Positions 2,683 through 54,549 of a stretch of 64,000 nucleotides of DNA are shown piece after piece. The notes below the pieces were generated by a model, which ran no database searches, was not told the DNA's origin, and saw nothing but the letters and a program-made list of their open reading frames with translations. A program made the position numbers and the translations under genes. The stretch is from a virus. Taxonomy: Duplodnaviria; Caudoviricetes. Location of the stretch: positions 50,308-114,307 of the IMG/VR virus record IMGVR_UViG_2721755344_000002; one strand, given 5' to 3'. The number at the start of each line of letters is the position of its first letter. Within the stretch, counting starts at the first letter, position 1.

Positions 2683-2968
2683 GTTCGCTATTTATCCTAA
2701 TCATTCTCTTACTCTTACGGTTATTTGCTTTTATATTAGAATTAAAAGGAGATATAAAATTAAGTACATTCTTCCAACACTTTTTGTGAACATAATAGTA
2801 AATAAGCCCCTCTGAAATATCTTCTGAAATATCTAATCTGTACTCTGGCTCGAACGATGGCGATCCACGATAATACAACTGCTTCTGGCAGACAAAACAA
2901 GTACCAGGTCTCATTGACATCACCTCCAGACTTAAAAATCTTTGCCATCTGTGCAATTTAGAATCCAT
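2675..2968 (-). CDS. hypothetical protein with KRMIRI tail motif
   Basis: CFVC...HKKC, ends KSKRMIRINSEQF; true start may be downstream. Confidence 0.65.
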   Translation of the reverse strand: MDSKLHRWQRFLSLEVMSMRPGTCFVCQKQLYYRGSPSFEPEYRLDISEDISEGLIYYYVHKKCWKNVLNFISPFNSNIKANNRKSKRMIRINSEQF

Positions 2969-3099
2969 ACCAATCTATCCCAGGAAGTCCGTCCACTATT
3001 GCCTTTAACAATTTTTCATCTTCAGTAGGTTCTGGAGGAGGTTGTAAATCCTTTGTCAATAGCGGTTCTGAATTAAATTCAAAGCAAAATGGTTTTGGA

Positions 3100-3297
3100 T
3101 CATTCCTTCTTTTTTTCAGCCATCTCTTTCTCCGCATCTAATTCCTCCACCCTATCTACGTGAAAATATTTAATAAGATCATCCAAAAATTTATTTTTCC
3201 ATTTCCAACAAATAGGAGCAGTTTTTGTAATCATCCCGTCGTCATCTACTTTCACACAAAATGTAGATTTAGGACTTGATAACCAATATGTTTTCAT
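3100..3297 (-). CDS. hypothetical phage protein
   Basis: ATGA-coupled to upstream gene. Confidence 0.65.
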   Translation of the reverse strand: MKTYWLSSPKSTFCVKVDDDGMITKTAPICWKWKNKFLDDLIKYFHVDRVEELDAEKEMAEKKKE

Positions 3298-3554
3298 TCA
3301 TCCCCATCCCTTAACCTTAGCATCCTCCATTTTGAAGTTCTTTCAACCTTGTTAGTATTTCTAACATCCAATTCAATAGGATCATTTTTTCCTATTATTT
3401 CTATCAAACCCTGAATGTTTCCTTCCGTAAATACAATTTCGGCAGTAGCAAAACTTCTGCATGCAAGAAATTCCTTATTCCGTTCTCCAAAAGAAGAAAC
3501 ATCAAGTGATTCTCTATCAATATTTACAGATTTTATATAACCTTTAACTTTCAT
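3294..3554 (-). CDS. hypothetical protein with RMLRL tail motif
   Basis: ends KWRMLRLRDGDE. Confidence 0.65.
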   Translation of the reverse strand: MKVKGYIKSVNIDRESLDVSSFGERNKEFLACRSFATAEIVFTEGNIQGLIEIIGKNDPIELDVRNTNKVERTSKWRMLRLRDGDE

Positions 3555-9260: not shown

Positions 9261-11831
9261 TTAAACGAACTCGAAAGTGAACTCTCCGCCTGTACTGGCT
9301 ATAAGAGCTATTGCATTTGCTAAAACTATATCGTCAGGTGATTTAGAACCGCCTGTTTTCATCTTAGCTAAATAGGAAAATCTTTTGGCCTGTTCAATAA
9401 ATCTCTTACTTTGAATTACCATCTCATCCATTCTAATAGCTTTGTCAAGCAAGTCGATCATTTGGGGTCTTGATAAATTCGATGTCAACCAACCCATCTT
9501 TCTATCAGGTCCCACATAAATATTAGGATAAGCTGGATAGGCTACCGCTCCCCTTCTTACTATTCCATTTGCCAAATTCAGAATTACAGCGTGACCGTGA
9601 TTGTTTCTTTCCACAGCAAGTACCGCATTATTATATGCCTTACCAAGCCTCCATAATTTCTCACTAAATATATCAGGGGTCCACCTTCCCACCAATAAAC
9701 CTACCTGTTCTATAGGAAGAGGAAAAGTCCTTAATACCATAGCTGCTGAATAATCTGAGTGCGGATCTCCTTCTGCAACATCTGCTCCCACCACATATTT
9801 AGCCCCAGGTTGAGCCATTCTGTAAACATACATATCTCCGCCTAGCCATATCTCTGCTGGAAACTGCTCTACTAAATTCTTATCTATTTGATTTAACTTA
9901 ATATTATCAAATACTGGAGTTCCTGACTTTAGAAAGACTTCTTCATCGTCGTCCTCGGGGTATTCCTGAACAAACTTAGCCCCCATCCTGAACTTCTTTT
10001 CCCTCCGCCAAGCTAACTGTTCAACAGTTAATCCAAACCTTTCTATTAATGCGACCTCTTCTTCATCCAAACTCGTAAGTATCTCTGACTTTTGCTCTTC
10101 TGTCAAATCGGTAATTTTATATTCTGAGTGCTTGTGCCACACAAAGTAGTGCCCAAAATACTCGTTTTTAACCCTTCGTTTGGGCCTGAATGGGTTTTTA
10201 GCTCCCATGTAATAGTCATAGAAGGGTCCGCCCTCCCCTCGTGCCGTAGACTCTAAAACCACGTGCCCAGTCCGAGGAACCGATTCCAATAAACCTATCA
10301 AAAAATCCTCCGTAAAGCTGGGAGAGCTCACTTCTGATAAATGAAGGTTATTAATAGTCCTGCCACGCCCAAAGTCCCTAGTTTCTGCCGAGCCAATAGT
10401 TAGAGTTGAATTTATCTTATCAAAATAAAGCTCTAATCTATTCGAGTACTTAACATGAGGCTGAAACACAGGAGCTGGTAATGGTTGACCCGCTATTGAA
10501 TCAAACATAAACTTTGAATTATGAATAATCCCGGAAACAGTTCTGTATTGATTATTAGGCTGATTCAATTTATCGTATAATTGCCCTTTATAGTAAATGC
10601 TTTCTATTTTTTTAATCTTTTGATAAATATAATCGTTGGTTTCAATAAAAGAAACCTTCCTACATTTTCTATCTAATTTTGAGTATTTTGCAAAAGTAGA
10701 ACCAAACATAGTAAGACTATATAGAGGCTTTTTCCTATTATCTTTACTTTTACGAATACTTGACCAACCATAGCCAAGAGCACATATTATATCACGTAAT
10801 TGATACGCTAACTGCGGTCTGCTACTTCCATAACTATTAGCTTTTCTATTTTTTAGGTTATGCCCATCACCGTCTATTAGCCCTCTCACAAGCCCTGTAC
10901 AAAAATCTTTATTTGCATCAAAAATCCAATCTGGAATATACTTCTCATTACCATCAGAGTCTACATAAAAAGTTTCTCGAAAAAATCTACGCCAAACTTC
11001 GCTAAGAAGTTCTACTCTTAAAACATTATTTTTTACTTTTAATTTTACTTTACCTCTTATTTTTACTTCGCAAGTTTCAAAAAATCTTTTGATTCTTTCG
11101 CCGAATAGCTGCTCTTTTTTATTTAAAGTAAAAATAATATTAGAACCTCTATTCTTATCTTTTTCTACATAACCTTCCGCAAGTAATATTCCAACTACCC
11201 AACCAAACTCTTCGTTTAAATCTATTTTAGCTTCATTTACCCCGTTATAAAGAAGTTTACGACACATAAGTTCTGTATTAATGAAAATACTCTTTAATTT
11301 TCCTGTAATATTCTTCTTATCAAAAGCAATTCTATCCGATAAAGTTATGTAGCGAGCTTGCTTCCACCCCTTCTCTGTAAGAATTTTATGATCGGGGGTA
11401 ACTATAATCGGATGATTTGGATTATTTCGCACCTGAATAGAAATCAAATCTCCATCCCATCGAATAGTAGAAGTACCTGATTCGCTAATTTTCTTAGGAA
11501 AACCGTTTGCTTCCAAAGTTTCAACATCTGGATGCACACAACGCTCAAATAATGCACTCGAGTCTTTCTGTGTATGGCAAACAATAATTGAAACAGTATT
11601 TGGAACAAATAATGTATCGTGGAGGAACAAACCAAGGATCAAGGTTGAGAACCCGAGCTGCCTCGGTTTCAAGATCACGTCCCTACGTGTTCTATTATCA
11701 TAATATTGATTTTGAGCTTCGTTGAATATAAAAGGAACTACATTTCTATCTTTATCTGTAATAGAAACTAAGCTTTCGATAAAAAACTTCGGGTCTATTA
11801 AAGCACGGTCTCTAAGACTTAAATTTGTCAC
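9261..11831 (-). CDS. terL: terminase large subunit containing an intein
   Basis: ILKPRQLGFST (Walker A), LHLSEVS (Walker B), ESTARG coupling motif, VVGADVAEG and AVERNNHG nuclease motifs, DDIVLA. Confidence 0.93.
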   Translation of the reverse strand: MTNLSLRDRALIDPKFFIESLVSITDKDRNVVPFIFNEAQNQYYDNRTRRDVILKPRQLGFSTLILGLFLHDTLFVPNTVSIIVCHTQKDSSALFERCVHPDVETLEANGFPKKISESGTSTIRWDGDLISIQVRNNPNHPIIVTPDHKILTEKGWKQARYITLSDRIAFDKKNITGKLKSIFINTELMCRKLLYNGVNEAKIDLNEEFGWVVGILLAEGYVEKDKNRGSNIIFTLNKKEQLFGERIKRFFETCEVKIRGKVKLKVKNNVLRVELLSEVWRRFFRETFYVDSDGNEKYIPDWIFDANKDFCTGLVRGLIDGDGHNLKNRKANSYGSSRPQLAYQLRDIICALGYGWSSIRKSKDNRKKPLYSLTMFGSTFAKYSKLDRKCRKVSFIETNDYIYQKIKKIESIYYKGQLYDKLNQPNNQYRTVSGIIHNSKFMFDSIAGQPLPAPVFQPHVKYSNRLELYFDKINSTLTIGSAETRDFGRGRTINNLHLSEVSSPSFTEDFLIGLLESVPRTGHVVLESTARGEGGPFYDYYMGAKNPFRPKRRVKNEYFGHYFVWHKHSEYKITDLTEEQKSEILTSLDEEEVALIERFGLTVEQLAWRREKKFRMGAKFVQEYPEDDDEEVFLKSGTPVFDNIKLNQIDKNLVEQFPAEIWLGGDMYVYRMAQPGAKYVVGADVAEGDPHSDYSAAMVLRTFPLPIEQVGLLVGRWTPDIFSEKLWRLGKAYNNAVLAVERNNHGHAVILNLANGIVRRGAVAYPAYPNIYVGPDRKMGWLTSNLSRPQMIDLLDKAIRMDEMVIQSKRFIEQAKRFSYLAKMKTGGSKSPDDIVLANAIALIASTGGEFTFEFV
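10518..11540 (-). mobile_element. intein (341 aa) with LAGLIDADG homing endonuclease
   Basis: Starts C(98)VHPD, VTPDHKIL block B, GILLAEG and GLIDGDG LAGLIDADG motifs, ends IIHN followed by Ser. Confidence 0.92.
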
Positions 11832-38793: not shown

Positions 38794-39191
38794 CTATGGC
38801 TTTTTCGCCACATTTAGTACATTTCACAAATCGGGTCAATCGAATAAGATTCTCCAACTGAGTCAAAATCTCTTCGCCTTCATTCTCAAAATTGTGATCG
38901 CATTCCGCCATCTACTCTAATAATTTCCTGCACATTTTTCTTGCTTCAATCAAAAAAACAGAGTCGTTTTCTGGCTGTTGTAAATATACCCACAATTCTT
39001 TAATACCGCCCCGCAATTTTTTTATAGTGTCTTTATACGTTTCTTTGACTATCTTTCTTTTTGCCATAATCTCCTAAAGTTTTTTTTCCCTTCTTTCTTT
39101 TGGCTTCTTTTTGCTTATCAAGGTGAACTTTCGCAAACTGCTCAGCCCAAAAATCTGCCCTGTCCTTTTTTCTTTTCATATTATTGAGAAT

Positions 39192-39220
39192 AGTATAACA
39201 TAAATAGAAAGGAATGTCAA
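39192..39220 (-). promoter_or_regulatory. sigma70-type promoter
   Basis: TTGACA-17-(TGT)TATACT. Confidence 0.75.
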
Positions 39221-39221
39221 G

Positions 39222-40715
39222 CTAAAGAGTACAAGTTCCATCTTCGCATTTAGTAGAGACTAAAACCCCGTCAATAGATTTATCTCTAAAAACGGTTATC
39301 CCCTTTGCTCCCATTTTCCATGCTTGAAGATAAATATTCCTAATATCTTCCACACCAATATCATAAGGAACATTTACTGTTTTACTAACTCCAGCATCTA
39401 CAAATTTTTGAAATTCAGCTTGAATCTTGATATGCCACTCGGGGCTTACTTGGTGGGCGGTCCTGCAAAACTCGGATTTGTAAATATCTCTTGTTTCTTT
39501 AATTATTCCAACTGTTATATGTCTTTCAAAACTGGTATCAAATACGGGCTCAATCCCGGAAGAGCAATCAGCAAGTATGCTCAAACTGCCTGTAGGAGCG
39601 ATGGACCTTTTATAAAAAGAATCCCCTCCAACTTCATCAGAAGCTTCTACATAAGGTTTAGCTAATTTACGTATAAACTCAAGACAATCTTCAGAGTCAT
39701 ATTTTATACCCAACATAATCAGAGTATCTGCGAATCCCATTATCCCAACCCCAAACGGAGACAACTCTTGCATTACTCTTCCGATTTGAGGAATAGGATA
39801 ATAATTAATAAGATTAACATTTAATAATGCCCTACTTCCAATCTTAACAACATCAAAAAATCTAGCAAAATCAAAATTATCCCCATCAACAAATTTACTA
39901 ATATTTATACTTCCAAGAGTACAGGCTCCCCAATCTGGGAGGGGGACTTCTCCACACGGATTTGTTGCCGTAATTTTTATCTCTGGAAATCTCCTATTAT
40001 CTTTATTAATTCTGTCATAAAAAAGAAGTCCAGGATCCCCACTAACCCATGCTCCCAAAGTAATTAAATCAAATATATCTTTGGATTTCAAACTCCCATA
40101 TTTTTTTCCTTCGTGGATCAAATCTACATATACCCCGCCATTTTCGAGAGAAGACATAAATTCATCTGTTACAAGTACAGAAAGATTGAAATTGGTAAGA
40201 GTTCTTGTAAGTTTTGACCTACAAAAATCAAGTATATCAGGATGATTATAGTTAAGAACACTCATAGCGGCTCCTCTCCTAAATCCACCCTGTTTAACAA
40301 TTTCTGTCACCCTGTCAAAAAGATTCATAAAGGAAGTAGAGCCACTACTAGTTCCCCCCGAAGATAGAGGCGCATCTTTTGGTCTTAAAGCACTAAAATT
40401 GAACCCGCAACCTCCCCCTCTCTGAAATATTACAGCCATATTTCTAATAGCATCAAAGATACTGTGAATTGAATCTTCAATAGGCAATACAAAACAAGCA
40501 CTTAATAAACCCTTTTTTCTTCCAGCATTTCTAATGGTAGGACTGTTCGGAAAAAATATTCCATCCGAAAATAGTTCCAGTAATTTATTCTCAAATTTAT
40601 CATCTTTTATACTAATAGCTTTTGCTACTCTCTTTAAAACCCCTTCCGATGACTCCGCCTTATCTTTGTGCGCGTACCTATTTTGTATCAACAATGAAGC
40701 ATTACTACTTAACAT
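39222..40715 (-). CDS. nrdJ: class II (adenosylcobalamin-dependent) ribonucleotide reductase, compact
   Basis: PNSPTIRNAG, SACFVL, QGGFRRGA, TNPCGE, CTLGSIN, IAPTGSLS, SKTVN, C-terminal CEDGTC; no beta subunit gene adjacent. Confidence 0.92.
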   Translation of the reverse strand: MLSSNASLLIQNRYAHKDKAESSEGVLKRVAKAISIKDDKFENKLLELFSDGIFFPNSPTIRNAGRKKGLLSACFVLPIEDSIHSIFDAIRNMAVIFQRGGGCGFNFSALRPKDAPLSSGGTSSGSTSFMNLFDRVTEIVKQGGFRRGAAMSVLNYNHPDILDFCRSKLTRTLTNFNLSVLVTDEFMSSLENGGVYVDLIHEGKKYGSLKSKDIFDLITLGAWVSGDPGLLFYDRINKDNRRFPEIKITATNPCGEVPLPDWGACTLGSINISKFVDGDNFDFARFFDVVKIGSRALLNVNLINYYPIPQIGRVMQELSPFGVGIMGFADTLIMLGIKYDSEDCLEFIRKLAKPYVEASDEVGGDSFYKRSIAPTGSLSILADCSSGIEPVFDTSFERHITVGIIKETRDIYKSEFCRTAHQVSPEWHIKIQAEFQKFVDAGVSKTVNVPYDIGVEDIRNIYLQAWKMGAKGITVFRDKSIDGVLVSTKCEDGTCTL

Positions 40716-40743
40716 ATTTCTCCTTTGCGGGTAAAACCCTATA

Positions 40744-41022
40744 TTAAGATAGATTGAATTTTCTTGTTCTTTTGTGAATTAAACTACCTGGATATGGTAA
40801 CTTATGCTGGGAATACCACGCTTCAGAGAGGCTAATAAAGTTATTTTCATTCTCAATAGCTTGTAAAAAAATTTTTTGGAGTTCTTCGTATGCTCTCGTT
40901 CCGTAAACTCGTGAACCGCAGTCCTCGTCTTTACAAGTAAAATTAGAAGTATAAAGTTCCTTACCACAAACAAAACAATGAGTTAGACCACTTTTCTTTC
41001 CATTAATTCTTATCATTATCAT
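40744..41022 (-). CDS. zinc-finger hypothetical protein
   Basis: CFVC...C...C. Confidence 0.6.
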   Translation of the reverse strand: MIMIRINGKKSGLTHCFVCGKELYTSNFTCKDEDCGSRVYGTRAYEELQKIFLQAIENENNFISLSEAWYSQHKLPYPGSLIHKRTRKFNLS

Positions 41023-41079
41023 ACATTGACCATCTACCTATTCATTTATATAAGTCGCTATTTTTCGCTAAAAAATATA

Positions 41080-41309
41080 TTGGGATGCAGGTGGATTTTA
41101 TAAAGCTGAACGTAACAACAAAAGAACTATCCATTACAGTTCTACAACGGAGTGCGACTAGACTTGCGAGGTTACAGCAACGACAACAAAGGCTCAGCCG
41201 GAATCGAGACTCCCCAAAAATAGTCGCCGCCAACATAGTACAGCTCCAGATATTTCTATCTCCACTTTTCCGATGTCTAAGCAAAGCTAACAACATCGTA
41301 GCATCCCAA
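41080..41309 (-). ncRNA. novel ~230-nt multibranched ncRNA candidate
   Basis: At least seven mutually nested helices closed by TTGGGATGC/GCATCCCAA, followed by a U-tract. Confidence 0.7.
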
Positions 41310-41316
41310 ATTTTTG

Positions 41317-41601
41317 CTAAAGCGGTTTTAAAATATCTTTTGCATCAGCTTCAAAAACGATTTCTGTTTTGGCATTGCTCTCCTTAATAGCCGAACCTGC
41401 CATGAACAGGAAATTCTCGTATTCGCTAATGCGCTTGTCAATCTCTTTTGGGTCGTACTGGGGACTGGTTTCTTTTACGAAGTCTCCAGAAATCCTATCC
41501 GACCATCTTTCCCTAATAGATTGATCTTTTTGGAGACCCTTATACCTTCCTATCCTCTCCCGAACTACCTTCATCATCTCCAATAACTGATTTACTGTCA
41601 T
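41317..41601 (-). CDS. DIP1984/DUF6847-like coiled-coil protein
   Basis: Start refined to MTVNQLL (GGAGGTGA RBS); helix-loop-helix, P.YD..EID..I and AIKESNAKTEI C-terminal pattern. Confidence 0.55.
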   Translation of the reverse strand: MTVNQLLEMMKVVRERIGRYKGLQKDQSIRERWSDRISGDFVKETSPQYDPKEIDKRISEYENFLFMAGSAIKESNAKTEIVFEADAKDILKPL

Positions 41602-41758
41602 CCGAATCACCTCCAATCTTTTTAAAGCATTCTTTGCAGAGCAAAGTTGGAAATATAACATTTCTAACTCTAATTTCCTTAACCTCTGACATACGATTCA
41701 GTTTATTACATTCAGAACACCTAAAAAATTCAATTATGTCTTCTTCGATATAACCCAT
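41540..41758 (-). CDS. zinc-finger hypothetical protein
   Basis: CSEC...CKEC. Confidence 0.6.
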   Translation of the reverse strand: MGYIEEDIIEFFRCSECNKLNRMSEVKEIRVRNVIFPTLLCKECFKKIGGDSDDSKSVIGDDEGSSGEDRKV

Positions 41759-42034
41759 TCAAACCTCTTTCTCTCCAAGAATCAATCCTTTAGCCCTCAT
41801 CTCATCATATTGTTTAATCTGAAGTTTGACTTGCTCCAATTCTAGTTCGGAAATAATTCTCCTATCAATCAATAGCGATCGCAAAGCAATAAACTCTCTT
41901 TGGATAGTCCCCATTTTATCCATCAAATCGTTCAGGATAACTACAAGCTGGTCTATATTTTGCTTGTTCTGCGTCTCAGCTATTAATAGTCTTTCCTGCC
42001 TCGACCTCTTCATACTTCTTGCATCAGCTCTCAT
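41759..42034 (-). CDS. coiled-coil hypothetical protein
   Basis: ATGA-coupled. Confidence 0.65.
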   Translation of the reverse strand: MRADARSMKRSRQERLLIAETQNKQNIDQLVVILNDLMDKMGTIQREFIALRSLLIDRRIISELELEQVKLQIKQYDEMRAKGLILGEKEV

Positions 42035-42510
42035 ATGTATCTCTCTCCTGCGTCTAATTGACCGACTCCCTCGAGTTCACATAAAAATTCATGTATCTTT
42101 TCTTCCAAAAATTCTTTCGTAACGTCTTCCTTATCTTTATAATGAAGAGCAAGATACTTCAGATCTTCCGCTCTGTTGTTTACCATATAATTATGAAGTG
42201 CTATAAAAGATTTATGGGCAGAATCCCTGTAAAATTTATGATGGCCCGGACAGGTGGCGCAGCCATTTTGCGGAGCATATCTAAGAACTTTGTTAGTCCA
42301 ATAATTTTCAACATGGTGAGCATTTAAATAACCATCTGAACATGGAGTACCTAAGAATTTACCTATCTCGCAAATATTACCTGCTCTCTTCCTAACTACT
42401 TTTGACCAAAGTTCTGAGCATCTCTTTCTAAGTCGTTTTAACTCTTTAGCTTTATAAGTCTTAGTATCTTTATTTACGACTTTCTTTTTCTTCTTTTTCT
42501 TCACTACCAT
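42031..42510 (-). CDS. HNH/NinG-like endonuclease
   Basis: LWSKVVR...CE..G...LNAHH...LRY...NG..TC..HH. Confidence 0.75.
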   Translation of the reverse strand: MVVKKKKKKKVVNKDTKTYKAKELKRLRKRCSELWSKVVRKRAGNICEIGKFLGTPCSDGYLNAHHVENYWTNKVLRYAPQNGCATCPGHHKFYRDSAHKSFIALHNYMVNNRAEDLKYLALHYKDKEDVTKEFLEEKIHEFLCELEGVGQLDAGERYI

Positions 42511-42534
42511 TATATTAACACCTTTGCAAAAATT
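42511..42534 (-). promoter_or_regulatory. class II promoter-like motif
   Basis: AATTTTTGCAAAGGTGTTAATAT, ATG 5 nt after GTGTTA. Confidence 0.5.
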
Positions 42535-43297
42535 ACTCGTGAATAATCTCGTCCAATATTGCCTTCATTTTAGGAGTAGAATTATCAAGAATATAAGCTT
42601 TCAATTTTTCTTTTAATTCGGTTCTCTTTCGGTAAAATACGCCTATTCCCAAACCGGATTTCTTCTGTAACTTAGTCCAGTCTCCTATCTTCCCATACAC
42701 AAATGTATAAGCTATATCCCTTTCTAGTTGGTCAGTAAAAGAATAATTCTCAAACAACGTCCTTACATCCCCAAAAAACTCTTCCCTCTCAAAATCATTA
42801 TCTTTAAACGCTTCCGTCTGCGAGGCAAAATCATCAGATGTTCGGAGTCTTGCTTCTAACTTCCAATCTCGCTGACGATGATACAAGTGCAATCGAATCT
42901 TGTTTAAAATTTCCTGATTGAGAATATCTCCTAAAAAGGTAATAAATTTAGTTCGGCGTCTTCTATCCCATATATCTACTGCTTTAACAAAGATGAAAAA
43001 ACTTTCTTGAAATAGTTTTTGGCAAAGTTCTGGATCTCGACGTAAAATTGTAGACTTTTTTTCTCTAATAAACTGATGAACTCTACCGTGAACCAAACCC
43101 CTTACTTGATCCCAAAGAATATTTCTCAGGGGAGTCAAATGAGTCCGTTGATATAAATCGCATAGGTCGTCATACCAACTTGTGTCTCTCTTATCCTTGT
43201 GCAATAAAAACTCATTTTTTCCACGTCTAATAATTACATTTTCGTGTTTAGCCCGACGCTCTATTATCGGAATAAAAAGACTTTTAGCCCTTCGCAT
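42533..43297 (-). CDS. phage sigma70-like transcription factor
   Basis: Region 2-like LFQESFFIFVKAVDIWD...KFITFL; C-terminal HTH. Confidence 0.65.
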   Translation of the reverse strand: MRRAKSLFIPIIERRAKHENVIIRRGKNEFLLHKDKRDTSWYDDLCDLYQRTHLTPLRNILWDQVRGLVHGRVHQFIREKKSTILRRDPELCQKLFQESFFIFVKAVDIWDRRRRTKFITFLGDILNQEILNKIRLHLYHRQRDWKLEARLRTSDDFASQTEAFKDNDFEREEFFGDVRTLFENYSFTDQLERDIAYTFVYGKIGDWTKLQKKSGLGIGVFYRKRTELKEKLKAYILDNSTPKMKAILDEIIHE

Positions 43298-43347
43298 TCC
43301 ATGCCTTTATCCTCTTAAAAACGGGCTTAAATAAGATTATCCAATTA

Positions 43348-44061
43348 TTATTTCATCTTTTTATCCATCTCATACTTAACATATTTGGGTTCGACACCTT
43401 TCATAATCTTTTTATTCATCTCTTTTTCAATTTTAGTTATTTCTTTAACATATTTTGGCTGAATACCCCCGCCAGGACCTGCGTTGTATGCGCTTAAAGT
43501 AAGTTTCCACACTTCTGTTTCATTTGTGGGATGCTTAACTTTATACGTGTCATACAAATCCTTCAAGATATGAGTAGCCACTTTAATATTTACAAGAGGA
43601 TCCCAAGCAGCTTGAGTTGACACACCCAATCTCAACTTCTTGGCATAATCTTCAAATGTAGCTGGCATAATCTGCATAATACCCATAGCACCCTTACTGG
43701 ATTTAGCATTAGGAGCAAACTCACTTTCCCCTTTCATAACTGCCAATACCAAACCTGGAGGCAAATTCAGGTGCTTACATTGCTCCACAATCGCCTGTGC
43801 AATATCCATACCCTGCCCTAAAGAAATACCTTTGTTCCTTAAAACATCATAAATAGTACTCTTCAATTTGAAAGTCTCTAAAACCAGGGATTGATCGTTT
43901 ACCAAAAAAACATCATACGATACTTTCTTAGTTAAAAGAGTCGTCCCTAGTAAAACAACCAAAAGTAAATAAAAACAGTTGGTTAGAATCCATCTTAATC
44001 GCCATTTCTTCTTCAAACTATCATATGTTTTTTTCCATACAACACCCGTAGACTCATTCAT
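43348..44061 (-). CDS. SLT-family lytic transglycosylase with N-terminal TM anchor
   Basis: LAVMKGESEF, GAMGIMQIMPAT, NI, LSAYNAGP. Confidence 0.9.
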   Translation of the reverse strand: MNESTGVVWKKTYDSLKKKWRLRWILTNCFYLLLVVLLGTTLLTKKVSYDVFLVNDQSLVLETFKLKSTIYDVLRNKGISLGQGMDIAQAIVEQCKHLNLPPGLVLAVMKGESEFAPNAKSSKGAMGIMQIMPATFEDYAKKLRLGVSTQAAWDPLVNIKVATHILKDLYDTYKVKHPTNETEVWKLTLSAYNAGPGGGIQPKYVKEITKIEKEMNKKIMKGVEPKYVKYEMDKKMK

Positions 44062-44107
44062 AATAGTTCTCCTTTTAACTCTTATTAGTTATATAATCTA
44101 CGAGTAT

Positions 44108-44136
44108 ATCTTACCATATTTAGAGTAGTTTGTCAA
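44108..44136 (-). promoter_or_regulatory. sigma70-type promoter
   Basis: TTGACA-17-(TGG)TAAGAT. Confidence 0.7.
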
Positions 44137-44435
44137 GTCCTTTCTCCCTGTCGGGCAAGACTCTTTAAATTTCTCAATGTTTCAGAAAACCTCAATGGAT
44201 CAACCGTAGCCTCCCTATTCAGAAATGCCATAATATCTTTCTCTAAACTTTCTGTATCTTCAAAGCAAAACCAAGACTTCTCCCTATCTTTTCTTATCTT
44301 CTTAATTTTATAATCTCGACAAGCTAGATAAGAAACAAGTGCAATATCTGATAATTCTTTCTCTTTAGCCACGTTACCCTCCGTCATATATTCTGGTTTC
44401 ATCGTTTTCCTTTCGAGTCTGAATTCTATTCTCAA
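44133..44435 (-). CDS. DUF5659-like small protein
   Basis: SDIALVSYL...WFCFED...VDPLRFSETLRNLK. Confidence 0.6.
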   Translation of the reverse strand: MRIEFRLERKTMKPEYMTEGNVAKEKELSDIALVSYLACRDYKIKKIRKDREKSWFCFEDTESLEKDIMAFLNREATVDPLRFSETLRNLKSLARQGERT

Positions 44436-46272
44436 ATTTTGACTTAAAATAGTCCAAATGAGTTAAAACAAAAATGCTTTCCCTTTTAGGAAGCTGTAAT
44501 TCCATATTTAACTGTTCTCCGTAAATCATGGATTTCAAAACCTGTATTACACGATCGCAAATCTCTTCATCAAGTCGTTCAAAAACCTCATCGAGAACAA
44601 GAATAGAAAATCGTTTAGACGACCGGCTACTTGCAAGATCGCCCAGAACAAACATCACAATTACATCAATAACTCTCTTTTCACCTCCCGAGTTACCGTC
44701 ATAAACCTCGGCACCGATTTTATTGAAAGCCATAACATCAAATTTTTCTGCTAAATCCCCCTTCTTCAACTTAGTTTGAGCCGAAAACTTAATATCAAAT
44801 TTATTATCAAACAAAGAAGAATAAGTGGAAGCCCAGCCATTCATTTGAGGAATCATAGATTCTATTATTAAAGATTTAACACCCGCATTGGAAAAACCGG
44901 AAACCCAAAAAGCATAATATTTAATTTCCTCTTGCAGACAAGATAATTTTTCTTCTTCCTCGCTTTTTTCCAAAATAAAATTTGCTAAATCTTCTCTTAT
45001 TTTATCTGCATTATGCGGATTCTCTGCCAAACTTAATCTAGTAATTTCATTTTCCAACGCCTGTCTCGTAGTAGAAATGCGAACATTCTCAATTTTAGCT
45101 AAATTAAATCTCTTTTCTAAATCATTCTTTACCTTTATTAATTCGTCAGCTTGCGTAAGTAATTTTACCAACTCTTCTTTCCTATTAAACATATCGAAAT
45201 ACTGTTTGTTCAAATCCTTCAACTTTTCTTCTAACTGATTCTTTTCCTCTATAAGTTTGGATTTCTCATTTTCTAAGTGATCTTTGTGCGTTTCAGCAAA
45301 TTCTTCTTTTATTTCTTGTCCGCAACTCGAGCAAGTCGTCCCTATTTTATCCTTTATACTATAAATGCTATCAGTCAGAAGTTCTATATCCGCTTTCTTA
45401 TAAGTTATCTTCCCCTCCTGCTGCCCTTTTTCCAAATTTAAACGTAATAAATCGTCCTGTATAGTAGTTAAGTCATCGGGTATTTGTTCGTTGATTTCAG
45501 AAATCTTTTTATCCAAAATTGAAATTTCATCTTCTATTTGTTGGGTATCTAATACTTTAAGACTACCTAATTCTTCTCTTAGTTTTTGAATATTCTCTTC
45601 TCTGAAGAATTCAAAATCTTTAAATTTCTTTTCTTGTTCTACTATCTCATCCTCCTTCATCTGGATTCGTGTATTTTTAGTACCAATAGCAACCTCTATC
45701 TTAATTTGTTCCTTCTCCAAGTCAGATAAATCTTTTTTAGCAGCATCCCAGGCTTCTGGTATCCAAGTAATGCCGAGTAACCTATCCACCACTTTCTTCT
45801 GCTCCGAATCTGTTAATCCAGAAAAATACTTAGCCATACTTTGACCAAAAACTACACTGTTGGTAAAAGCCGTAAAGTCCATATCAAGATACTTTACTAT
45901 CAAATCTCTTGTATGATCATTCGTGGAACCCAACCTTGGCTTGCCATTTATTTTAAAAAATACATTATCTTTATACTTACTGTGCTTACGATAACTGTCT
46001 ATCTCTATCAAATCATCGTCCGAACTAATCATTTTCAATCCCACATATGAGTTTCTACCGAAAAACCTGTTTACTACATCGTCTTTAGACACTCCTCTTG
46101 TGGTTTTACCATAGATACCATAGCAAAGAGCGTCTACAAAACAAGCACTCTTTCCACTACCGTTAAGTCCTTCAACAAGAACCAAACCTCGATTCCCAAG
46201 ATTAAGAGTAGTCTTAGATTTAACAGATAGGAAATTCTCCATCTCCAAACTAATTATTCTTATGGTATCCAT
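44374..46272 (-). CDS. SbcC/Rad50/gp46-like recombination ATPase
   Basis: GLNGSGKS, coiled coil with CSSC zinc hook, SGGEKR signature, LVLDEVF, LTH. Confidence 0.93.
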   Translation of the reverse strand: MDTIRIISLEMENFLSVKSKTTLNLGNRGLVLVEGLNGSGKSACFVDALCYGIYGKTTRGVSKDDVVNRFFGRNSYVGLKMISSDDDLIEIDSYRKHSKYKDNVFFKINGKPRLGSTNDHTRDLIVKYLDMDFTAFTNSVVFGQSMAKYFSGLTDSEQKKVVDRLLGITWIPEAWDAAKKDLSDLEKEQIKIEVAIGTKNTRIQMKEDEIVEQEKKFKDFEFFREENIQKLREELGSLKVLDTQQIEDEISILDKKISEINEQIPDDLTTIQDDLLRLNLEKGQQEGKITYKKADIELLTDSIYSIKDKIGTTCSSCGQEIKEEFAETHKDHLENEKSKLIEEKNQLEEKLKDLNKQYFDMFNRKEELVKLLTQADELIKVKNDLEKRFNLAKIENVRISTTRQALENEITRLSLAENPHNADKIREDLANFILEKSEEEEKLSCLQEEIKYYAFWVSGFSNAGVKSLIIESMIPQMNGWASTYSSLFDNKFDIKFSAQTKLKKGDLAEKFDVMAFNKIGAEVYDGNSGGEKRVIDVIVMFVLGDLASSRSSKRFSILVLDEVFERLDEEICDRVIQVLKSMIYGEQLNMELQLPKRESIFVLTHLDYFKSKFENRIQTRKENDETRIYDGG

Positions 46273-51993: not shown

Positions 51994-54549
51994 CTATCCT
52001 TTCGCTTCAGCGAGATTATTTCCTGCATGAACGTCTACTTTCAACGGAATACCAATCATCCAGGGGTATTGAAAACTTTCCATAATATTTTTAGTCAGTA
52101 TCATTCCAATTTCCACTTCTTCGGGGGGAGTATCAAATGCAAGAGCATCATGTATTGTTAAAATAGGATGCATTATCAATTCCTCTTTTACCAATCTTTT
52201 TTCCATCTCAACCAAAGCCATCACACAAATATCTGATGCAGTTCCTTGAATTGGACTATTTATCGCTCTACGTTCGTTCTTATTTCTGTCAGGGCCACCC
52301 TTAATAATAATTCTCCTACCAAATAAAGTTTCAACATATCCTTTTGTCCTCCAATCTTGTATCGTCTTATTCATATATTCTTTAACACCATCGAATATAT
52401 TTAAGTACTCGTCTATAAAAGTACTAGCTCTTCTAGTATCCAATTCACGATGAATACCACTTCCAGTATACCATCCTAATTGTTCAGCCAGTCCTATCTC
52501 CGTCATTCCGTAAACAATTCCGAAATTAACACTCTTAGATTCATCTCTCATTCTTTTTACTTGAGGATCCTTAGCTTCGTAACGACTAAGAGCCGTCTCA
52601 TAAGAAAGACCATTTATAGTAGCTGCAGTAGCTAAATGGATATCCCTATTTTGCATAAATGCCTCAATCATTTTTCTATCTCTACTCGCGGCCGCCAATA
52701 CGCGTAATTCAATTTGCGAATAATCCCCAAGTATTATTTTTCCGCCCTCGTAAGAACTAATAAAAAGTCTCAAAATTTCTGAACCTTCTCTAACAGGAAT
52801 ATTTTGAAGATTGGGATTCTCCATAGACAATCTACCTGTCAACGTAATATCCTGCCGAATATTTCCGTGAATCTTACCATCATATTTTATATGGCCTTTA
52901 TCGTAATAAGGAGAGATATATGTATTGAGTTTCTTAATCAATCCCTTCCATTCCAGCAAATCTTTAATAAAAGGATGCTGGTGCTTCATCTCTAATTCTT
53001 TAAGAACCTTTTTATCAACTGCGTACCCTAAAGTAGTTTTTCTTTCAGGTTTGGTAAAATTGAATTTACTAAAAAGAATGGTATTTAAATCTTTATTAGA
53101 TGCTAAAACTTTATCAAACGTTTTGCCCCAGTTTTCGTCAACTTCTTTATATCCTCGCAACCGCTCAAATACATTAGCAATCCCGGATTCTAAATTTTTC
53201 TTCAAATCCTCTAAATAATCCATATCTACTTTAACACCCTGAACTTCCATATTTTTAAAAACAGGAATAGGTGCCAAAACATTTTTACGATAATAATCTA
53301 ATTGGTTACTCTTTGCTAATTCCTCTTCAAAAATCTCTGCTAACTCTAGGTTATTAATACAATCATCCATATTCATATCCGCTAATTCTTTAAGCGGAAT
53401 ATCTCCAAATTGTCGGCCATCTCGCAAAATAACTTTGTAAGAATCTGAGTTTAGATAATCAATGCTCATTCTTTCCAAAGAATGCGATGTTTTTCCCTCG
53501 AGTAAAGGATGGGCCGGAAGAGTATCAAAATCTACCGAATCAATATTAAATCCAAAATGAACTTTCAAACATTTCAAATCCCATTTAAGATTCTGTCCTC
53601 TAGGTGATAAATCCTCTTTCTCAAAAAACTCATGAAGAACAGAAAAAGTTTCTTCAAAATTCAAAGAACTTTCTTTATGCTCCAATGGAATAGAAAAAGC
53701 TTTTATAGCTCCATCTTCTAATCTTGTAGCAAATCCAATTAAAGTAATTTTAAAATCCGTAGCCCAAGGGTCTAAAGCTTTTCGTTCCTTAATCTTACCT
53801 GGAGCATCGGTTTCTATGTCTAATACAAACTTCCTCTCAGCTATCGTATCCAAAGCATCTAATACTTTTTCTTTGGTATTGCAAAGAACTTTCTCTACTC
53901 CAACTTTTTCATCCTTTATTCCGTAAAGAATTTTATAGGCACGATTCATATCTTGCCTAAATAACTTATACTCTTTGTGATCCTGTTTCAATCGAATTAC
54001 ATAAGCTGGATGGTGAGCAACAAAAAAAGTTCGACCCATCTTCTTAAAGAGCATACCTCTATACTTGGATATCATAGATTTGTTGAGAAAATATTTTAGA
54101 GGCTGTTCCCCAAGAAGAATTATTAAGGATGGATTTTTCTCTGCAATTTCTCTTTGAATAAAACTACCGCAAATTTTCATCTCCTCATTAGTAGGAGCCC
54201 TATTCTTTCCTTTATCATCTACCAATCTACAATGAACAACGTTGCTGAAGTAACAATCACTCTCTCCAAAACCGCATTCGGATAAAATCTTACGCAAAAA
54301 CCTACCACTCTTCCCCACAAAGGGACGTCCTTCAATAGCTTCCTCCTCCCCAGGACACATCCCAATAAACATAGCCCTACCAGGAAATCCTTCTCCTGGG
54401 ACTATCTTATCCCTACCTATAATACGGCACTTTTCGCAAGGAATTTCAGTAAGAAGCTGGTCGTTTTCCCGTAAACGAATTTTTCTTTTAGGCTTGCTGA
54501 CTCTCAGTTCTTCCTGAGTTACTATCCACTCCTGTTGAATCACTATCAC
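51994..54549 (-). CDS. family A DNA polymerase with N-terminal family-4 uracil-DNA glycosylase-like domain and 3'-5' exonuclease
   Basis: GMCPG.EE...GRPFVGKSG, NVVHCR, HHPAYV (UDG); DIET, NLKWD (exo); TGRLS..NPNLQNIP, DYSQIELR, KSVNFGIVYG, QGTASD, IHDAL (PolA). Confidence 0.95.
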   Translation of the reverse strand: MIVIQQEWIVTQEELRVSKPKRKIRLRENDQLLTEIPCEKCRIIGRDKIVPGEGFPGRAMFIGMCPGEEEAIEGRPFVGKSGRFLRKILSECGFGESDCYFSNVVHCRLVDDKGKNRAPTNEEMKICGSFIQREIAEKNPSLIILLGEQPLKYFLNKSMISKYRGMLFKKMGRTFFVAHHPAYVIRLKQDHKEYKLFRQDMNRAYKILYGIKDEKVGVEKVLCNTKEKVLDALDTIAERKFVLDIETDAPGKIKERKALDPWATDFKITLIGFATRLEDGAIKAFSIPLEHKESSLNFEETFSVLHEFFEKEDLSPRGQNLKWDLKCLKVHFGFNIDSVDFDTLPAHPLLEGKTSHSLERMSIDYLNSDSYKVILRDGRQFGDIPLKELADMNMDDCINNLELAEIFEEELAKSNQLDYYRKNVLAPIPVFKNMEVQGVKVDMDYLEDLKKNLESGIANVFERLRGYKEVDENWGKTFDKVLASNKDLNTILFSKFNFTKPERKTTLGYAVDKKVLKELEMKHQHPFIKDLLEWKGLIKKLNTYISPYYDKGHIKYDGKIHGNIRQDITLTGRLSMENPNLQNIPVREGSEILRLFISSYEGGKIILGDYSQIELRVLAAASRDRKMIEAFMQNRDIHLATAATINGLSYETALSRYEAKDPQVKRMRDESKSVNFGIVYGMTEIGLAEQLGWYTGSGIHRELDTRRASTFIDEYLNIFDGVKEYMNKTIQDWRTKGYVETLFGRRIIIKGGPDRNKNERRAINSPIQGTASDICVMALVEMEKRLVKEELIMHPILTIHDALAFDTPPEEVEIGMILTKNIMESFQYPWMIGIPLKVDVHAGNNLAEAKG

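Follow-up and report, generated by a model that had tools for sequence, protein, structure and literature searches.

We identified a 230-nt structured RNA directly behind the gene of a 94-aa helical-hairpin protein in an uncultivated phage, and found the same gene and RNA together in about 40 diverged phage loci, the RNA always on the strand of the gene and directly downstream of it. Since the two travel together over such distances, they are probably the two halves of an undescribed protein-RNA particle. The evidence supports the RNA as real: it is conserved, it covaries, and its G·U pairing is specific to the strand of the gene. That the RNA and the DUF6847-like protein are dedicated partners, transcribed together and bound to each other in a particle, is a reading of the sequence data to which we give a probability of about 0.5.

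Genomic setting of the gene and the RNA

The window, that is, the whole stretch of 64,000 nt analysed here, comprises bases 50308-114307 of a 114-kb IMG/VR virus record with an estimated completeness of 87%. All the large genes of the window lie on the minus strand and form a DNA-metabolism block (Table 1). The gene-RNA module is flanked by a 72-aa and a 92-aa zinc-ribbon gene, the latter of which precedes the gene of the ribonucleotide reductase. The first 62 nt of the 94-aa gene (41540-41601, minus strand) are shared with the end of the 72-aa zinc-ribbon gene, which is read in a different frame, and this overlap was also called in relatives. The promoter-like element ahead of the next gene occurs once in the window and is kept in the clade's other five loci with a full gap between the genes; it may be a promoter of the phage, equipped with a site for a regulator or sigma factor, that serves the zinc-ribbon and reductase operon.

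The reductase itself differs in length among relatives. It is unbroken in the window, it has 835 aa with a LAGLIDADG domain beside the module in L002 (4886-7393) and in one further contig, and in L003 (2991-4480) it is broken into two ORFs 240 nt apart, which suggests an intein or intron that was gained or lost. An 856-aa ORF elsewhere in the window (9261-11831, minus strand) has intein-splicing and LAGLIDADG matches and is apparently a second intein-bearing gene of this phage.

Table 1. Features of the gene-RNA module and of the surrounding genes, in window positions.
Feature	Position	Strand	Remarks
94-aa helical-hairpin protein gene	41317-41601	-	ATG at 41601, GGAGGTG 6 nt before it; stop TAG 41319-41317
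Structured non-coding RNA	41080-41309	-	230 nt, closed by P1
P1, 5' strand TTGGGATGC / UUGGGAUGC	41301-41309	-	9-bp helix, pairs with 41080-41088
P1, 3' strand GCATCCCAA / GCAUCCCAA	41080-41088	-	
P2 hairpin CGAUGU...ACAUCG	41271-41298	-	variable arm
Junction GGAAAAG	41265-41271	-	clade-invariant except the first G, missing in L004
P3, 5' strand GUGGA	41261-41265	-	pairs with UCCAC 41091-41095
P3, 3' strand UCCAC	41091-41095	-	
P4 hairpin GAUA-GAAA-UAUC	41249-41260	-	MFE fold
P5 helix AGCUG/CAGCU		-	MFE fold
Core domain	41154-41227	-	outer stem GCGACUA/UAGUCGC (P6; Pa in the family)
P8 hairpin AGAACU...AGUUCU	41123-41143	-	word GUUGUAG just before
GU tail word UUUUGUUGUUAC	41112-41123	-	unpaired in the fold
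U tract UAUAUUUUUU	41070-41079	-	after P1
Promoter-like element	41046-41071	-	TAGCGA twice, 11 nt apart, then TATAAA (TATAAT in relatives); ahead of the next gene
Ribonucleotide reductase	39222-40715	-	497 aa, unbroken in the window
Sigma-like protein	42533-43297	-	
DNA polymerase A	51994-54549	-	fused to an N-terminal UDG-superfamily (uracil-DNA-glycosylase) domain
RecA-like protein, SbcC/Mre11-like pair (SbcCD), 5'-3' exonuclease, methylase, HNH/NinG-like protein	same window block	-	

Fold of the RNA in the window

The first-pass annotation, made from the sequence alone, had described an RNA of about 230 nt with nested helices that begins 7 nt after the stop codon of the 94-aa gene. Both its extent (41309-41080, behind the spacer CAAAAAT) and its helices P1, P2, P3, P4, P5, P6 and P8 were recovered here, the helices all in the MFE fold. 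The outer stem of the core, Pa, encloses UUUUUGG, an inner stem GGGG/CCUC (Pb) and a GU block, UUUGUUGUCGUUGCUGU (41190-41174), and within the GU tail CUUGUUGU is kept across the clade. The U-rich tract that had been placed after the helices is present too. It can pair with the A tract preceding P1 (helix 1 of the clade alignment, 94% paired), and it is possibly the end of the transcript. A scan of 39000-44500 gave no terminator-like site, and we ruled out that the element is an intrinsic terminator only, as the U tract is preceded by P1, a long-range helix with 212 nt between its strands, and not by a local hairpin.

The MFE fold of 41320-41060 (minus strand) has an energy of -72.9 kcal/mol (z -2.18; 5 of 200 shuffles were as good). 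The opposite strand has about the same z-score, so folding energy alone cannot decide the strand. The G+C content of the gap is 0.40-0.44 against 0.33-0.37 nearby, in line with the earlier remark that the gap is GC-richer than the genome. The earlier annotation had also pointed to repeated unpaired words of the GUUG type. Their repetition was clear, with six GUUG in the RNA (41294, 41234, 41187, 41181, 41148 and 41119) against 1.86 expected and six reached in only 4 of 1000 shuffles; their single-strandedness held in part, since several of these words are partly paired in the MFE fold.

Conservation in the close clade

Among the contigs with homologues of the gene, the gap is complete in five and half present in one. 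We laid the window fold on a six-sequence MAFFT alignment (the window and five relatives) and found 78% of the cells paired in the whole structure, against 40-46% with slid partners. Covariation was 0.256 against 0.05-0.10 with slid partners, and 23 pairs were changed on both sides, a result that none of 500 shuffles matched. In particular, P1 had 96% of its cells paired with both sides changed in three pairs, and P3 and P8 had 100%, the relatives reading GCGAA/UUUGC in P3 and AGACUUG/CAAGUCU or AGAUUUG/CAAAUCU in P8. P6 and the inner GGGG/CCUC stem were also kept in their cores. P4 is found in the window only, with gaps in the five relatives, and P5 is poorly supported (57% paired), possibly through an alignment problem. 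The P2 arm carries a 45-nt insertion in L003 and L004, and insertions are the usual behaviour of a variable arm. The GGAAAAG junction was found too in RNAs of the L019, L035, L020 and L025 types.

The strand was decided by the mismatches that the helices accept. In the plain MAFFT alignment of the clade, the cells of P1, P3, P8 and the core stems contained 15 G·U and no A·C combinations, and the structure is therefore read on the strand of the gene, as RNA. Together with the pairing and covariation above, this sustains the view of the first-pass annotation that the gap holds a real structured RNA.

The RNA family beyond the clade

The collected loci came from IMG/VR (3, by protein alignment search), JGI metagenomes (36), a genome collection (1) and a related phage record (1), and their proteins are 32% to 80% identical to that of the window. 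Each of the 38 distinct loci in which the sequence extends about 220 nt or more past the gene had a non-coding element of 138-266 nt, starting 5-65 nt past the stop codon. The elements have a common plan: a long closing helix, in which the 5' strand is rich in purines and the 3' strand in pyrimidines; a variable hairpin or two; the outer core stem Pa around UGUUG; the inner stem Pb, whose loop consists of an A-rich tract followed by UUGUUGU and GUUGUU; and finally a GU-rich tail with about three words at 7- or 10-nt spacing. The next gene's ribosome-binding site follows the RNA within 10-30 nt in most other clades. The folding-energy z-score had a median of -4.9 over the family and was below -2 in 35 of 37 RNAs.

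Alignments of distant members by sequence alone left the stems out of register, and RNAalifold predicted no pairs on them; the structure was therefore given by hand and the sequences were realigned with a covariance model. The resulting core model, R1, covers the core and the tail (112 positions, 10 pairs). In 31 loci, including 11 outside the seed, it gave a match directly behind the gene, and it did so too in two loci found later, L057 (54.7 bits) and G006, which brings the non-seed loci to 13. In the R1 alignment 74% of the cells were paired against 51% in shuffles, although this alignment was fitted to the structure, which favours pairing, and the slid controls are equally biased. Covariation in the same model-fitted alignment was 0.416 against 0.157 in shuffles (0 of 500) and 0.10-0.21 with slid partners, and both Pa and Pb covary family-wide. 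R1 gave no match to the window RNA at E <= 1; the window RNA is divergent, and its membership of the family rests on the clade alignment, whose members L002, L009 and L015 are matched by R1.

The full-length family alignment (416 columns, ragged ends) was too long for a model, and we therefore assessed the closing helix by complementarity statistics, in windows set by the stop codon and the end of the R1 match with no helix preselected. The two ends of the same locus had a complementarity of 33.1, against 22.2 +/- 5.0 for ends taken from different loci, with p <= 0.05 in 22 of 30 loci, and the sense strand scored better than its complement in 24 of 30 (Wilcoxon 3e-4). Own ends being complementary and cross-locus ends not, the closing helix is kept while its sequence changes. 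The sequence downstream of homologous genes had been named beforehand as the place to look for covariation, and the structure there is both kept and covarying.

The GU words are a property of the whole family, with 182 GUUG against 56.5 +/- 7.3 expected, about threefold over. The distances between UUG words have maxima at 3, 6-7, 10 and 13 nt (z 10-36), and the spacing of the GU words is mixed (7 and 10 nt), with no single clean period. A subtype of the RNA in L037, L043, L048, L030 and L041 has a stem such as GGCU/AGCC around a long stem, the loop of which holds an A-rich tract and UUUGUUGUU; R1 aligns to it only in part. R1 also gave a false match of 32.5 bits in the window (43947-44054, minus strand) inside a gene with an SLT domain, where a hydrophobic segment is encoded by UUG- and GUU-rich codons that resemble the GU words. 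Models of GU words thus also pick up Leu/Val-rich coding sequence.

Linkage of gene and RNA

In five related whole phage records (536 kb) the protein was found once (G006 2877-3167) and the R1 site once (G006 3232-3343), in the same record, 65 nt apart and on a shared strand. Beyond the close clades the flanking genes are unrelated (55 singleton neighbour proteins), and most of them encode replication, recombination and nucleotide enzymes, among them Prim-Pol, PD-(D/E)XK nuclease and RecA in relatives. As the flanking genes vary between clades, the RNA is not the leader of one particular downstream gene. In 14 phage contigs with a related reductase, gene and RNA were both missing up to 3 kb from it. 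The co-occurrence in the five records, the unrelated flanks and the reductase contigs that lack both make the gene-RNA pair the conserved unit.

Genes for tRNAs lie near the module in 4 of the 38 loci. In a few relatives they stand closely 3' of the RNA (L026 2036-2123, L023 1388-1463, L045 1115-1698), and in L026 a tRNA-Pro starts 11 nt past the end of the closing helix. The sole match among 185,579 species genomes was L057 (3001-3455), in which gene and RNA lie on an 11.9-kb contig of a Methanosarcinales metagenome bin; this is either a misbinned virus contig or a hint of an archaeal host.

The 94-aa protein and its relatives

Close homologues have 93-94 aa and the N-terminus MTVN, and ten of them were found in metagenomes at about 70% identity. 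A protein profile search recovered 124 representative clusters in metagenomes, nearly all of 90-100 aa. The AlphaFold2 model of the window protein (pLDDT 74) is a helical hairpin with helices at 3-36 and 51-74. Six residues are invariant or nearly so in the family, namely R16, Y49, D50, D55, K73 and N76. According to the model, R16 should adjoin K73 and N76 across the two helices, and this group and the group Y49-D50...D55 at the loop end are candidate contact sites. The family proteins are not basic, with a median pI of 6.3 and a net charge of 0.

The first-pass annotation had called the protein DIP1984/DUF6847-like, and this stands at superfamily level. The window protein itself gave no match in Pfam or NCBIfam (E <= 1), a PF20935 search of this phage genome gave none at E <= 1, and at the curated cut-offs the protein falls outside both PF20935 and NF038048. 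PF20935 was weakly matched by 10 of 56 relatives (best E 2.2e-5) and NF038048 by 12 of 56 (best E 1.6e-5). The ESM Atlas placed the window protein beside DUF6847/DIP1984 clusters, mostly viral (feature score 0.92, 215-216 features in common), and its structure search gave a TM score of 0.63 to a DUF6847 cluster. Given the weak matches of the relatives, the Atlas placement and the missing match of the window protein, we read it as a member of a distant branch of the superfamily, a DUF6847/DIP1984 relative at that level only. Like DIP1984/DUF6847 proteins (about 95-140 aa) it is small and all-helical, but the PF20935 model has 141 positions against its 94 aa. Foldseek, which had been suggested for confirming the family, returned generic hairpins and coiled coils only, as did VIA-align, and a PDB sequence search with the protein gave coiled-coil noise only. 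A literature search on DUF6847/DIP1984 found no described function and no paper mentioning a partner RNA.

Comparison with described RNAs and RNA-binding systems

The exclusion of known RNA classes, proposed in the first-pass annotation, held for Rfam 15: the window and 20 related loci gave tRNAs only at the gathering score, and a permissive scan of 40900-41500 gave noise of 13-14 bits only. RAGATH-27 (RF03100) had no match on G000 91330-91623, which corresponds to the gap of the window, and reached 11-14 bits elsewhere in the genome against a gathering score of 76.1. Searches of deposited phages by blastn, and by tblastn with two family members, found no close DNA or protein relative, and IMG/VR gave nothing by single protein, exact word or degenerate RNA pattern. 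The genome of phage T5 (AY543070) was matched at E <= 1 neither by PF20935 nor by a profile of 56 family sequences, although a more distant subfamily could escape both. No paper or catalogue entry describing the gene-RNA module was found in the literature and catalogues.

Several described systems resemble the module in part. The trp leader bound by TRAP and the hut leader bound by HutP in Bacillus carry short words at regular distances on single-stranded RNA. The words here are strongly enriched, with mixed short spacings and some of them paired in the fold, and by analogy they would suggest one protein subunit per word. However, TRAP and HutP are beta-rich rings and the protein here is a helical hairpin; their RNAs are 5' leaders that control the downstream operon, whereas the RNA here lies 3' of the protein's own gene and has a long closing helix; and their word is (G/U)AG, against GUUG and UUGUUG here. 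A 5' leader of this type with a terminator/antiterminator switch was rejected, given that the RNA is 3' of the gene, that the downstream genes vary and that the clade has a promoter-like element in between. Rop (Rom) of ColE1 is similar in design only: it has fewer than 100 aa in two antiparallel helices, is not notably basic and binds structured RNA. It differs in that it binds two trans RNAs in a kissing complex and has no adjacent RNA gene, and the window protein has no sequence relation to it and no Pfam match.

In Ro60 (Rsr)-Y RNA modules, which also occur in phages, the gene of the protein stands beside a folded 100-250-nt RNA whose ends are paired in a long stem. We rejected such a module here: there is no Ro60/TROVE among the neighbours, which are zinc-ribbon, HNH/NinG-like, sigma-like and ribonucleotide-reductase genes, no Y-RNA or YrlA match in Rfam, and no tRNA-like arm in the window RNA. 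GOLLD, ROOL, HEARO and OLE are likewise conserved multi-stem RNAs of phages, mobile elements or metagenomes that came from comparative genomics and whose function is unknown or recently emerging, but the RNA here has no Rfam match, reaches only 140-270 nt, far less than these, and follows directly on a protein gene that stays constant. Finally, type III toxin-antitoxin systems of the ToxIN kind have tandem RNA repeats of 34-45 nt upstream of an endoribonuclease toxin gene. We rejected this class for a module in which the RNA lies downstream of the gene and forms a nested multi-stem fold free of long tandem repeats, and in which the 94-aa protein is a simple helical hairpin; the toxin/antitoxin-like pair that had been suggested earlier is thus unlikely.

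Possible roles of the RNA

A co-transcribed protein-RNA particle is the most economical and, on the sequence data, the most likely reading, and the RNA most likely shares the promoter of the 94-aa gene, on whose strand it lies. We infer co-transcription, binding, oligomeric docking and the particle's role as follows. P1 and the covarying stems would hold the single-stranded GU-rich words (GUUG, UUGUUG) at fixed positions, copies of the helical-hairpin protein would dock on these words to give a stable protein-RNA particle, and this particle would be active in the DNA-metabolism phase of infection. We counted against it that the protein is not basic, that its hairpin fold is generic, that several GU words of the window RNA are partly paired in the MFE fold, that word spacing is mixed, and that the window RNA is divergent.

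A rather unlikely alternative is that the RNA is a cis-acting 3' untranslated element of the messenger of the 94-aa gene, either a stabilising end or an autoregulatory operator, with no separate particle. The distance of 7 nt to the stop codon leaves no room for a promoter, the fixed place and strand of the RNA behind the gene agree with such an element, and in the window clade the U tract and the new promoter-like element behind the RNA would make it the 3' end of the transcript. In most other clades, however, the ribosome-binding site of the next gene follows so closely that the RNA is internal to the transcript there, and a multi-stem element of 140-270 nt with conserved single-stranded words goes far beyond what a protective hairpin needs. 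The known autoregulatory operators, such as those of T4 RegA, gp32 and the ribosomal proteins, sit 5', at the ribosome-binding site, unlike the 3' RNA here.

Slightly more doubtful is an RNA that acts in trans on a host or phage target, for instance by drawing off a host nuclease or RNA-binding protein as a decoy or by base-pairing through its GU words, with the protein as a helper or merely co-expressed. The sponge RNAs CsrB and RsmZ likewise present single-stranded words repeatedly on a folded scaffold, the GU words could pair with CAACAA-like and CAGCAA-like targets, and a non-basic protein fits this account. Strict adjacency to one protein family down to 32% identity, while all the other neighbours change, is nevertheless hard to explain without a direct tie between RNA and protein.

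It is very improbable that the element works as DNA, for example as an origin of replication or some other site of protein binding, in which the inverted repeats and TTGTTG words would serve as such, the latter as iterons. Its place among replication and recombination genes, in the window and in relatives, and the presence of short repeated words with long-range inverted repeats would suit such a site, but the helices accept G·U and not A·C, the closing helix is better on the sense strand, the orientation to the gene is fixed, and the stem sequences change freely with pairing kept, which is not how DNA-binding sites behave. Scarcely credible is a small protein encoded in the gap, be it the 84-aa ORF (minus strand) or the 100-aa ORF (plus strand) that cross it in the window, the 71-aa gene call at that place in L002, or a peptide rich in Leu and Val that the UUG and GUU words would encode: as the first-pass annotation had judged, there is no convincing ORF, for no frame is conserved (3 to 13 stops in each of the six frames in L003 and L004), the sense frame is open over 80% of the length in 7 of 37 RNAs and the antisense likewise in 7, the 84-aa and 100-aa ORFs have no family match, and substitutions preserve base pairs and not codons.

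Implications

The protein-RNA particle may extend well beyond this phage. We consider it possible, with a little less confidence than the partnership itself, that DUF6847-like proteins and their GU-word RNAs form an undescribed class of particles widespread in large phages, in which several protein copies would sit on the spaced words of a closed scaffold. Such a particle would have a nucleic-acid-handling job of its own in infection, for example in counter-defence or in the surveillance and repair of RNA or tRNA.

Few structured RNAs have a protein partner of their own. Examples include RNase P, SRP, tmRNA-SmpB, Ro-Y RNA, CRISPR guides and the omega RNAs of TnpB/IscB, and each one found so far has opened a field. 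A conserved partner RNA is the first concrete clue for a domain of unknown function, and a new RNA family with several dozen diverged members becomes testable. With less than 600 bp in all, the cassette is suited to expression in a laboratory host. The position of the module in the replication and recombination blocks of uncultivated large phages may point to an unrecognised step of nucleic-acid metabolism or host takeover.
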